DNA of 64,000 nucleotides from contig JBBTQX010000002.1 in assembly GCA_038065455.1 (NCBI GenBank), positions 6,779-70,778 of the forward strand, given 5' to 3'. This DNA comes from Patescibacteria group bacterium. GTDB lineage: Bacteria; Patescibacteriota; Minisyncoccia; UBA6257; GWB1-50-10. Below are positions 28,843-31,833 of this stretch, piece by piece. The notes under the pieces were generated by a model. That model saw nothing but the letters and a program-made list of their open reading frames with translations. It was not told where the DNA came from and made no database searches. The first letter of the stretch is position 1; each line of letters opens with the position of its first letter. The translations under genes and the position numbers were made by a program.

Positions 28843-29130
28843 ATGTATCCCGTTAGAGACATTTCTATGTATTACAATTACGTTTTAAGAAGCAAAAAAG
28901 ATGGGAAATGGTATACTGGCTACACGAATGATCTACGGAAGCGCTTTAGCCAGCACAATAGCGATAAATTCCCTCAATGGACCAAAAATCGGGGTCCTTT
29001 TGAAATCATATACTATGAAGCCTGCAAAGATCTGCAAGATGCAAGGTCGAGGGAATATTATCTAAAAACAGGAATGGGTAAACGTTATATCAAAAATAGG
29101 CTAAAGCGCTTCCTGTCTCTAACGGGATGA
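28843..29130 (+). mobile_element. family-1 element, ORF-bearing copy A (GIY-YIG ORF bounded by 15-bp TIRs)
   Basis: ATCCCGTTAGAGACA (28847-28861) is the exact reverse complement of TGTCTCTAACGGGAT (29114-29128). The ORF spans TIR to TIR. Confidence 0.75.
28843..29130 (+). CDS. small GIY-YIG nuclease-domain protein (COG2827/UPF0213-like)
   Basis: YNYVLRS..GKWYTGYTNDLRKRFSQHN...E..YLK: GIY, YIG, Arg and Glu positions present. Alternative start at ATG 28867. Confidence 0.8.
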   Translation: MYPVRDISMYYNYVLRSKKDGKWYTGYTNDLRKRFSQHNSDKFPQWTKNRGPFEIIYYEACKDLQDARSREYYLKTGMGKRYIKNRLKRFLSLTG

Positions 29131-30371
29131 ACCTCAAAACCCGGCGAACTCTCTTTTACTTCTTCATTCTCATATTCGTCCTTGCGGGCGCTTATCTCCT
29201 CGCAACCGCCCAGGGGCTGGTCCTGGATTTCAAAAATCTGAAGATTACCGGCACTGGCGGGCTCTTTTTGAAGTACGTTCCGCCCGACGCGACTGTGGAA
29301 TTGAACGGCAAAAAAACCGATGTTTCGCCCGGCCTCGTTTCGAGCGGAATTTTCATCTCTAAATTAATTCCCGACGAATACCGGGTAAAGATTTCAAAAC
29401 CGGGCTTCTCTGCCTGGGAAAAGACACTCGCGGTTAAGAACGGCGCGGTGGCTTCGGCGAGCCAAATCAGGCTCTGGCCCGAAGTCTGGGATTTGAATGT
29501 CATTACGACGAGCTCCGTCCGGGATTTCCGGCTCACGGGTGCGGGTCTAGTACTCCAAGGAAAAAACGGAACTCTTCGGCTGGACGGATTTTCTTTGGGA
29601 AACAGGAGTGTCGCTTTGAGCGGGCCGGACTCGTCCCTCATCGTTACGACCGATGAAAAAGAAAATTTTGTAACCAATCTCGAAGATTTGTCACCCGCGC
29701 TCGATATCGTCCGGCTCTTTAATTCGCTGAAACAAAGCCAGTTGAATCTTCCCGGCACGATCATTCCTAAAAATTACTTCCTTCATCCCTTTAACGCCAA
29801 AATTCTCATCACGACCGGAAACGCGCTTTACTCGCTCGATATCAAAAGATTGAGACTTGAAAAACTGACCGATATGGCAGGAATTAAGAAGGCGGAATTA
29901 AGGGGAAACGAAATGTTTCTTTTCGATATGAAAGACAATATAACGACATTCAATCTTTTTCTCCAAACTGCCAGAATTTATGAATCGACCTCCACCGAAG
30001 CCATCGGAATAGGAGCGAGCCTGGCCGGCTTGCCGGCCCCCGACGGGAAAAAGATTTTTTTGCTTTCAAAAAACGACACGCTTTCTTTGAAAGTTTTGGA
30101 AAATTATTATGCCGACGGCGAAGTGAGAAAGGGCGATATGTGGCCCGTTTTTTCCGACCGGGGCAAAATAACGGATTTCAAATGGTTGAATGGCAATTCT
30201 AATTATGCGCTGGTACTTGCCGAAAAAAACTTGTTCATCGTTGAAACCGACCGGCGCACCCCGCAGAATATCCGACTCATATCCCAAGGAGTGGAAAAAT
30301 TCGCGACGGAGGGAAACGATCTCTATATCCTCAAAACCGACGGCACGCTTCTGAGGGCGAGTTTGAAGTAG
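29127..30371 (+). CDS. hypothetical membrane-anchored protein with a PEGA-like domain
   Basis: N-terminal TM. DATVELNGKKT...YRVKISKPGF resembles PEGA. The ATG overlaps the GIY-YIG TGA. Confidence 0.6.
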   Translation: MNLKTRRTLFYFFILIFVLAGAYLLATAQGLVLDFKNLKITGTGGLFLKYVPPDATVELNGKKTDVSPGLVSSGIFISKLIPDEYRVKISKPGFSAWEKTLAVKNGAVASASQIRLWPEVWDLNVITTSSVRDFRLTGAGLVLQGKNGTLRLDGFSLGNRSVALSGPDSSLIVTTDEKENFVTNLEDLSPALDIVRLFNSLKQSQLNLPGTIIPKNYFLHPFNAKILITTGNALYSLDIKRLRLEKLTDMAGIKKAELRGNEMFLFDMKDNITTFNLFLQTARIYESTSTEAIGIGASLAGLPAPDGKKIFLLSKNDTLSLKVLENYYADGEVRKGDMWPVFSDRGKITDFKWLNGNSNYALVLAEKNLFIVETDRRTPQNIRLISQGVEKFATEGNDLYILKTDGTLLRASLK

Positions 30372-30381
30372 AAGACGAATT

Positions 30382-30750
30382 TTAAAAAATATCAGAGACT
30401 CTAGTCAGTGCAAGCCGATTCATGACTTCATCGTCATAGTTATCCATATGGACACAGATGCAAAGTAAGACGATAACGGCGCCTTTTACTGCGAACCACA
30501 TTCGGGGATACTGATTGGGTCTTAAATTATCATTAGGAACAACGAGTTCTACTTTCCATAAGGTCCAGATATCATTCTGCGTTACCCTGTGTAATTTTGC
30601 CGGGGCTATTATTTGCTTCGGATTCTCCGGATTGAATTGAAATTCGCACAACCTCTTGAATGAATCTAAACCGTCTTTAAGATGACGAAATCGCCGCTCA
30701 AGGGCGGCGATTTCTTTTTCTATGCCGTCATGATACAGAAATTCAATCAT
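30382..30750 (-). CDS. RelE/ParE-superfamily-like toxin candidate
   Basis: 122 aa. LWKVELVV......YPRMWFAVKGAVIVLLCICVHMDNY matches the RelE-type beta core pattern. 4-nt overlap with the upstream antitoxin. Confidence 0.55.
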   Translation of the reverse strand: MIEFLYHDGIEKEIAALERRFRHLKDGLDSFKRLCEFQFNPENPKQIIAPAKLHRVTQNDIWTLWKVELVVPNDNLRPNQYPRMWFAVKGAVIVLLCICVHMDNYDDEVMNRLALTRVSDIF

Positions 30751-31238
30751 AGGTCGCTGAAATCCGTACCGCGATAGAACGCGAGTTCATATGAAATATC
30801 CTCTCCCGGCTTCGTCCCAACATATGGGGCCTCAGCATGGGAAAGTTCGCCAAGCTGTTTTCCATTCAATTGGCCGTATTTTATGGCAACGCGATCAAGC
30901 ATTCTTCTTTCTTCGATATCTAATATTAATTCATCCGGTTCCGCCAAAGAACTGTAAACCTCAATTGGATTATATCCATTTCCCAATTCGACGGCTTTGG
31001 CAAGAAGTATTTTTTTCTCGGACATTTCCGATATAATTTTCTCAAAAGAGACTGGTACTGGCCCCATAGGAAGGGCTTTATATGTATCCCCAGTTATAGG
31101 TTTCTGATTCTTTTCGAAGAAATCAAAATCAGCAAAATAAAGGAGTTTTGCTAGTTTTTTCTTCCCTTGGATTTCACCTCCTAATTTCTTACAGAGATAT
31201 AGTATAACTTGCTGATATTTCTTCTTTTGGAGGGTCAT
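30747..31238 (-). CDS. DUF4065 (Panacea/SocA-like) antitoxin-domain protein
   Basis: 163 aa. KKLAKLLYFADFDFF....PITGDTYKALPMGPVP is characteristic of DUF4065. Confidence 0.7.
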   Translation of the reverse strand: MTLQKKKYQQVILYLCKKLGGEIQGKKKLAKLLYFADFDFFEKNQKPITGDTYKALPMGPVPVSFEKIISEMSEKKILLAKAVELGNGYNPIEVYSSLAEPDELILDIEERRMLDRVAIKYGQLNGKQLGELSHAEAPYVGTKPGEDISYELAFYRGTDFSDL

Positions 31239-31251
31239 TTTACTTAACAGT

Positions 31252-31281
31252 ATTATACCACAATAAAACTCAAAACAACAA
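31252..31281 (-). promoter_or_regulatory. candidate promoter of the toxin-antitoxin pair
   Basis: Minus strand: TTGTTG, 18 nt, TGgTATAAT (extended -10), 13 nt, ATG. Confidence 0.45.
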
Positions 31282-31354: not shown

Positions 31355-31380
31355 GAAAAAAAATCCCCGAAGGGATTTTT
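31355..31380 (-). terminator. rho-independent terminator after rpsI
   Basis: Minus strand: A-run, stem atccc/gggat with loop ttcg, then T8. Confidence 0.75.
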
Positions 31381-31833
31381 TTAACGCTTGCGCCACTGTT
31401 GCGGCCGTCTCGCTTTCCGCAGGCCGTATTTCTTGCGCTCCACCTTCCGGGGGTCGCGTTTCATAAAGCCGAGGGATTTCAATTTGGAACGCCAGGTGGG
31501 ATTCAAAGCGACGAGGGCGCGAGACAAGCCGAGCCGGATGGCTTCTGCCTGGGAACTCAAGCCACCTCCTCCAACCAATGCCGTCGCGTGGTATTCCTTG
31601 AGCGAAAGCTCGCCGAAGGGAGCGAGGACGGTCTTCTGCAATTTCGCGGTCGGAAAATATTCGGAAAAGGGCAAATCATTCACGATAATCTCCGGAGTCT
31701 TGCTCGCCGCTTTGCGGCCGGAAAAAAGCCGGACGCGGGCGACCGCGGTCTTCCGGCGGCCGATAGCCTCGATATATTTATCCTTTTCCTTTTCAATTTT
31801 CTTCGCCGGATGGGCGGTTGTTTTCGAAGGCAT
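31381..31833 (-). CDS. rpsI: 30S ribosomal protein S9
   Basis: GRRKTAVARV...GGG.SGQA.A...G..RAL...KKYGL.KARR..Q.SKR-type C-terminus. Start trimmed to ATG 31833. Confidence 0.92.
   Translation of the reverse strand: MPSKTTAHPAKKIEKEKDKYIEAIGRRKTAVARVRLFSGRKAASKTPEIIVNDLPFSEYFPTAKLQKTVLAPFGELSLKEYHATALVGGGGLSSQAEAIRLGLSRALVALNPTWRSKLKSLGFMKRDPRKVERKKYGLRKARRPQQWRKR

Follow-up and report, generated by a model that had tools for sequence, protein, structure and literature searches.

Genomic layout of the cassette

We examined a candidate toxin-antitoxin cassette in a 64,000-nucleotide stretch of DNA, referred to below as the window, from a Patescibacteria group bacterium (GenBank assembly GCA_038065455.1, contig JBBTQX010000002.1, positions 6,779 to 70,778 of the forward strand). 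The source is an ultra-small groundwater bacterium. The window contains one copy of the cassette, which consists of two genes, panA and panT, both lying entirely on the minus strand. An earlier description of this DNA made from its letters (the sequence-only reading) did not state the strand. It did report a 163-amino acid gene followed by a 122-amino acid gene with an ATGA overlap, and the coordinates of the open reading frames (ORFs), together with the TCAT at 30747–30750, agree with that description. The features at the locus, in window coordinates, are as follows.

30747–31238, minus strand: panA, a 163-amino acid ORF with the Panacea domain alone
30382–30750, minus strand: panT, a 122-amino acid ORF with a predicted RelE/HigB fold, from a sequence family without annotation
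30747–30750, minus strand: ATGA overlap, in which the panA stop codon TGA and the toxin start codon ATG share bases (TCAT on the plus strand)
31252–31281, minus strand: putative cassette promoter, with a -35-like TTGTTG (31281–31276), an 18-nucleotide spacer and a -10 box (31260–31252)
30687–30714, no strand assigned: hairpin inside the toxin gene, 11 base pairs with a 6-nucleotide loop (coding strand), covering toxin codons 13–21
31357–31382, minus strand: intrinsic terminator of rpsI and the ribosomal protein operon, with 11-nucleotide perfect inverted arms and a 4-nucleotide loop

The genes upstream of the cassette are rpsI (PF00380, E-value 4.5e-36) and rplM, both confirmed by Pfam. The terminator hairpin, AAAAAAATCCC-TTCG-GGGATTTTTTT, starts directly with the rpsI stop codon, and a run of T comes after it on the coding strand; this bears out the placement of the cassette downstream of an rpsI terminator by the sequence-only reading. 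The cassette is also more AT-rich than its surroundings, as that reading had it. Its guanine-cytosine (GC) content is 40.4% compared with 47.7% for the window (standard deviation 3.9% for windows of the same size), placing it at the 4.9th percentile, and the adjoining ribosomal operon has a GC content of 50.7%.

A TGGTATAAT box is found on the minus strand at 31260–31252, 13 nucleotides ahead of the panA ATG, where an extended -10 promoter (TGgTATAAT) belonging to the cassette had been proposed. The -35 element is weak (TTGTTG, with an 18-nucleotide spacer), and a consensus promoter scan gave the site no score for this reason. There is no Shine-Dalgarno sequence before the panA ATG in the sequence as read. 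In most related cassettes a -10-like box occurs 8–15 nucleotides ahead of the ATG, and a very short leader therefore resembles a family trait. We infer that the cassette has its own promoter and a very short leader that function as such.

The putative antitoxin gene

The 163-amino acid protein matches the PF13274 (SocA_Panacea) profile over residues 29–139 with an E-value of 3.8e-19 and a score of 70.1 bits, compared with a cutoff of 25.7 bits, and the match spans profile positions 1–112 of 113. By the Pfam gathering threshold it is a Panacea protein, in keeping with its first identification as DUF4065/Panacea. No domain besides Panacea is found in it. We identified 1161 homologues, the best 120 of which are 61–70% identical to the window protein and nearly all 163 amino acids in length. 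Conservation at the first, second and third codon positions is 0.81, 0.89 and 0.55.

The exact window PanA is absent among the best 120 of the 1161 homologues listed, where the top match has 70% identity. Contigs from the same population encode a 163-amino acid Panacea gene at the position of the window panA, and the probable reason for the missing exact match is technical, lying in the word-index search, and not biological.

SocA, the antitoxin of the type VI system SocAB of Caulobacter crescentus, is the founding member of the Panacea family and has the same Pfam domain, PF13274. The SocB toxin is an unrelated protein whose binding partner is the sliding clamp of DNA polymerase. A SocAB-like function for the cassette would make PanA an adaptor that gives the toxin to ClpXP for constant degradation, with no inhibition, and the weak NCBIfam SocA match of PanA (NF047745, E-value 1.8e-7) is in line with this idea. 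However, the match scores 31 bits against a 190-bit equivalog cutoff, and PanA was rejected as a SocA equivalog. Additionally, the partner in the window has a predicted RelE fold that is unrelated to the fold of SocB, and direct binding would be expected rather than delivery to a protease. In biochemical tests by Kurata et al. (PMC8832971), every PanAT pair studied proved to be a direct complex, and these pairs were assigned to type II. We consider a SocAB-like function very improbable.

The toxin candidate as a sequence family

The 122-amino acid protein encoded by panT, called the toxin below, has at least 581 homologues, counted as clusters at 90% identity. Leaving aside an exact copy (P0001), the best 120 of the 581 share 70–78% identity with it, and nearly every one has a length of exactly 122 amino acids. 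A search free of a word index through 1.84 billion cluster representatives found only 80 toxin clusters at 50% identity, and the family is therefore small and compact. Conservation at the three codon positions of the toxin gene is 0.81, 0.90 and 0.56. By this pattern, its counterpart in panA and the 581 and 1161 homologues, both genes are under purifying selection and are real genes rather than chance ORFs.

The toxin has no match in Pfam or NCBIfam at an E-value of 1 or less, and none in PADLOC, PHROGs or, using phmmer, the PDB. A profile of 47 diverse members searched against the PDB also found nothing. Sequence membership in PF05016, PF05973, PF15738, PF06769 and other families of the superfamily (RelE, HigB, YoeB, YafQ, ParE) was tried and rejected, as there is no significant profile match. 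The sequence-only reading had suggested that the toxin family may be new. This holds for the sequence family, which has no match in the libraries or the PDB, but not for the fold or for the pairing of PanA with a RelE/ParE-fold protein, which are already catalogued. A confident match to a family of non-toxins, which that reading had named as an outcome that would speak against a toxin, did not arise in the library searches.

Predicted fold and candidate active site

A structure prediction of the 122-amino acid protein, suggested in the sequence-only reading, returned a RelE/HigB fold. The final model was built from the diverse alignment and has a predicted local distance difference test score (pLDDT) of 97.1 and a predicted template modelling score (pTM) of 0.90, with all five models above 96 in pLDDT. 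The topology is b1(3–6), a1(8–18), a2(24–38), b2(53–58), b3(63–68), b4(83–89), b5(92–99), a3(107–121). Two N-terminal helices lie on a twisted antiparallel sheet, as in the RelE/ParE superfamily, and the model resembles solved members. An earlier model from a shallow alignment (pLDDT 73, with one of five models confident) indicated the same superfamily. Foldseek comparison with the PDB found the same families, with weak E-values (0.04 or worse). The toxin is thus predicted, with high model confidence, to have a RelE/HigB fold.

This fold is also that of ParE-like poisons of DNA gyrase. A ParE-like toxin would keep the same operon logic and have DNA topology as its target. However, ParE-like structures give lower structural scores, and the conserved His/Tyr/Arg pattern described below is a misfit to them. 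We regard a ParE-like toxin as unlikely.

Across diverse members of the toxin family P82 never varies, and conservation reaches at least 90% at L96, H101 and Y105. K-L-H-R (52–55), W-K (65–66) and P-R-x-W-F (82–86) are likewise retained in the consensus. For comparison we used HigB1 of Mycobacterium tuberculosis (Rv1955; PDB 7nbu and 7awk; PF05973, Gp49-like), whose sequence was checked against the PDB; its catalytic K95 is the residue mutated in 7nbu and 7awk to inactivate the protein for crystallography. In an hhalign register that is not significant (approximately 1% probability) but is in accord with the structure, PRMWF of the toxin lies opposite FRVLF of HigB1 and G90 opposite G84, and ungapped extension of this register brings H101 opposite K95. 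The residues K66, R83, H101 and Y105 are conserved and lie at the expected secondary-structure positions, with an alignment to HigB1 that is not significant. Their apparent coincidence with RelE/HigB catalytic positions is a hint, a lead to an mRNA-cleaving active site and not proof of one.

Linkage, distribution and decay of the gene pair

We scanned one genome per species using an alignment of the close toxin family and confirmed 83 loci, 80 of which were kept. The addition of four Sungbacteria-type contigs gave 84 loci. All but a handful of the scan loci are labelled as Patescibacteria lineages, namely Parcubacteria groups, Peri-/Peregrinibacteria, Moranbacteria, Uhrbacteria and others.

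A PanA homologue lies directly upstream of the toxin gene on the same strand in 82 of the 84 loci, and in the remaining two the toxin gene is at a contig edge. The -4 (ATGA) overlap is identical in 53 of the 84, extending to related loci the gene order first noted in the window. Toxin members that are 25–38% identical to the window protein are also found directly downstream of a Panacea gene, of 163–165 amino acids. The criteria used by Kurata et al. 2022 to predict PanAT loci are that the genes are no more than 100 nucleotides apart, are conserved in at least two species, and do not form part of a longer conserved operon. The window pair agrees with these criteria. The spacing is -4 nucleotides, all 82 testable loci, from many candidate phyla, have the pairing, and the surroundings of 79 loci sort into 56 unrelated groups. 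Since the pair occurs in 56 unrelated contexts, it moves as a unit, and the cassette is mobile and self-contained. Its GC content, 7 points lower than that of the window, is also in favour of mobility. Terminal repeats or target duplications that would convincingly mark the ends of a mobile element were not found; the sole flanking pair is 72% identical over 25 nucleotides, which is at chance level. No empty site was found, as none of the contigs with the exact neighbouring 414-amino acid gene lacks the cassette.

Several toxin genes are broken beside an intact panA. There are stop codons at W65 (locus L041), W62 (L068) and position 23 (L072), and frameshifts in two further loci (L071 and L080). 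No broken panA beside an intact toxin gene occurs among the 84 loci. Five broken toxins and no lone broken PanA is the pattern expected if the second gene is toxic. The alternative that the 122-amino acid protein is a non-toxic relic of the RelE fold, or an accessory or regulatory partner of PanA outside any toxin-antitoxin system, draws on the orphan status of its sequence and on its unusual conservation, since a fixed length of 122 amino acids and 70–78% identity across candidate phyla could reflect some other constrained function. However, the polar residues at the candidate RelE-type catalytic positions hardly vary, and the architecture agrees with the criteria published for predicting PanAT loci. 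A non-toxic partner is unlikely given the asymmetry of decay, and taking these points together we find it highly so.

In 11 of 71 loci (L017, L018, L023, L027, L031, L032, L041, L062, L063, L080 and L081) the 300 nucleotides ahead of panA contain a co-oriented transfer RNA (tRNA) gene, the identity of which varies, compared with 1 of 73 downstream; approximately two would be expected from the background density. The window cassette likewise follows the end of a ribosomal protein operon. It seems that cassettes come to rest directly behind units with high transcription.

Two distant pairs have other neighbours. One (L085, 2004–2899) adjoins DndB of the DNA phosphorothioation defence, and the second (L086, 860–1709) lies within a type I restriction-modification locus and has HsdS on its upstream side. 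Beyond the core clade of Patescibacteria, the module thus turns up in the setting of defence islands. It could accordingly serve chiefly for phage defence by abortive infection and not simply for addiction or stress; in that case Panacea would detect a signal of the phage and then free or activate the toxin. The two settings just described fit such a role, as do the movement of the cassette among many contexts and the label 'phage-associated protein' that some sources give to PanA. Ernits et al. 2023 propose Panacea as a sensor, and their network ties toxin-antitoxin pairs to defence systems. However, the window cassette and most Patescibacteria loci are flanked by housekeeping genes or tRNAs and not by defence islands, and PADLOC models match neither protein. 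A chiefly defensive role is possible but somewhat unlikely, and it is compatible with the mechanism that we favour.

Proposed mechanism

We consider it likely that the cassette is a type II PanAT toxin-antitoxin operon with a predicted HigB/RelE-like toxin, presumably a ribosome-dependent mRNase, that is neutralised by the binding of PanA. The promoter abutting the start codon would drive an mRNA with a very short leader. PanA would be translated first, and ribosomes ending at the TGA would restart at the overlapping ATG to produce the toxin, so that the two genes would be translationally coupled. The toxin is expected to stop translation by cleaving mRNA in the ribosomal A site, as a ribosome-dependent endonuclease. 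Since PanA lacks any further domain for neutralisation or DNA binding, direct binding of the toxin by the Panacea domain itself is most likely. Direct neutralisation by a Panacea-only antitoxin has been shown experimentally, while multidomain PanAs use their added domains (Ernits et al. 2023, PMC10440598). The role of the module may be to stabilise its own locus, to defend against phage by abortive infection, or both.

Several points weigh against this assignment. A protein of the RelE/ParE fold may be a poison of gyrase instead of an RNase. A Pfam search with 47 diverse toxin members returned only two faint matches, each from a single member, to YafQ (E-value 0.033) and ParE-like (E-value 0.074) families. 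Alignment of the toxin family by hhalign to single RelE, YoeB and YafQ sequences gave a probability of 1% or less, and alignment to a 13-sequence HigB1 alignment (PF05973) gave approximately 1% with an E-value of 0.057. On account of the hhalign probability of at most 1%, membership of the toxin by sequence in the RelE, HigB, YoeB and YafQ families is rejected; the fold match is unaffected. The mapping of the catalytic residues rests on a register and not on a significant alignment or three-dimensional coordinates. Finally, faulty assembly of genomes from metagenomes could explain some of the disrupted toxin genes.

Comparison with known systems

The pairing of PanA with a RelE/ParE-fold toxin is not new, because two such clusters, T14 (WP_067091868.1) and T28 (WP_014112102.1), are already catalogued. 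The entries of Dataset S1 of Kurata et al. 2022 (PNAS 119:e2102212119) covered here describe T14 as HigB-2-like (HHpred 99.7%) and T28 as YoeB/ParE-like (89%), with the antitoxin first and a -4 overlap. In these entries both have a PanA without an N-terminal domain, both are predicted only, and the source genomes are from RefSeq (Methanobrevibacter, Taylorella, Rodentibacter). MqsR-like and ParE partners of PanA are also mentioned in the literature. The window cassette is likewise a bicistron with PanA first, lacking an extra N-terminal domain, and a small RelE-superfamily toxin second, and it shares the -4 overlap with T28. In contrast to T14 and T28, the window family is found only in metagenomes, almost all of them from Patescibacteria; this distinction is drawn from the descriptions of T14 and T28.

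The survey of Kurata et al. comprised 20,209 genomes (PMC8832971), and the follow-up Panacea network is biased towards RefSeq. The part of Dataset S1 covered here contains no Patescibacteria. The distant toxin members that we looked up are all metagenome proteins, with no RefSeq member among them, and a literature search found no paper linking Panacea or DUF4065 with Patescibacteria. What is new about the cassette is its sequence family and its host range; the kind of system is known.

The toxin is only 12–15% identical to M. tuberculosis HigB1 and to Streptococcus pneumoniae HigB (6af3), and the window family has His101 where HigB1 has Lys95. In HigBA systems the antitoxin, HigA, is a helix-turn-helix protein encoded after the toxin. 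The window differs in both respects, as its antitoxin is encoded first and is a Panacea protein, so the operon order is not that of HigBA. RelE, YoeB and YafQ of archaea and bacteria (1wmi, 2a6q, 4q2u) are ribosome-dependent mRNA interferases. Compared with these the window toxin is approximately 30 residues longer, adding a strand (53–58) and a long C-terminal helix in the model; it has no significant sequence similarity to them, and its antitoxin belongs to a different family.

A conserved hairpin inside the toxin gene

The hairpin within the toxin gene encodes EIAALERRF (codons 13–21) and is GC-rich. On the plus strand, antisense to the toxin, it is followed by TTTTTC and is terminator-like. 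It is the most stable local structure of the cassette mRNA, at approximately -20 kcal/mol.

At least nine of the 11 pairs are held in 42 of 49 distinct cassettes. Changes on both sides of a pair are found at six of the 11, with 21 compensatory cells, and none of 500 shuffles reaches the observed values. Examples of compensation include GCTTCT/AGAAGC (L019) and GTCG/CGAC (L029 and L044). The codons of the two arginines in the 3' arm, R19 and R20, are also constrained. They are CGN in 91 cases and AGR in two, compared with 263 and 133 elsewhere in the same genes (p = 2.7e-12), and 85 of the 93 are CGG or CGA. Third-position conservation at the hairpin is 0.71, compared with a gene mean of 0.56. 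By these patterns the hairpin is under selection at the nucleotide level.

At the homologous position, a toxin gene encoding a protein 38% identical to that of the window (L086) also has a hairpin, the sequence of which differs, and in two other distant members that were checked a hairpin is absent there. Wobble pairs number 29 in the sense and 27 in the antisense orientation, and no strand is resolved by them. Nothing in the cassette attains a gathering score in Rfam.

The hairpin could act as a barrier or attenuator that yields a panA-only mRNA, as a brake on translation of the toxin, or as a terminator against transcription incoming from the opposite direction. More specifically, the ratio of toxin to antitoxin in a mobile Patescibacteria defence or addiction module might be set by this hairpin in the coding sequence, acting as an attenuator or 3'-end barrier or as an antisense terminator. 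This proposal is tentative, and we think it unlikely rather than likely to be correct. If it were true, an attenuator or barrier hairpin would give panA-only transcripts and keep the antitoxin in excess. Control of the ratio by RNA structure would then replace a DNA-binding antitoxin, which a Panacea-only PanA is not. Combined with phage sensing by Panacea, such control would amount to a streamlined design for defence or addiction that suits ultra-small genomes.

Neighbouring genes

On the other side of the cassette lies a convergent gene of 414 amino acids with a weak match to the PEGA domain. Its stop codon is 10 nucleotides from that of the toxin gene (window 30371–30382), which leaves no space for a terminator, and none is found in the gap. 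The two transcripts should therefore collide or overlap.

A 95-amino acid GIY-YIG endonuclease gene lies on the plus strand at 28843–29130 of the window, between the 414-amino acid gene and murA. It is present in one other locus (L091) and probably in a second (L089), both from the same groundwater population. It is absent in two further contigs of that population (L090 and L092), where its neighbours are only 93 nucleotides apart. This pattern of presence and absence suggests a mobile, homing-endonuclease-like gene.

Implications

The finding leaves the understanding of toxin-antitoxin systems unchanged and adds one more member to a known class. It provides a predicted structural and functional assignment for a 'hypothetical' family of at least 581 clusters (90% identity) that has no entry in Pfam, NCBIfam, PADLOC or PHROGs. 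The toxin is small and very well predicted, and with a His at the position of the catalytic Lys of HigB1 it is an easy target for work on active-site variation in the RelE superfamily. The hairpin in its gene is a testable case of dosage control where the antitoxin is without a DNA-binding domain. One hypothesis holds that streamlined genomes of the Patescibacteria kind are largely devoid of defence systems, those of the toxin-antitoxin type included (PMC12455944). The cassette described here extends the pairings of PanA into the Patescibacteria, a lineage that is invisible to RefSeq-based surveys.
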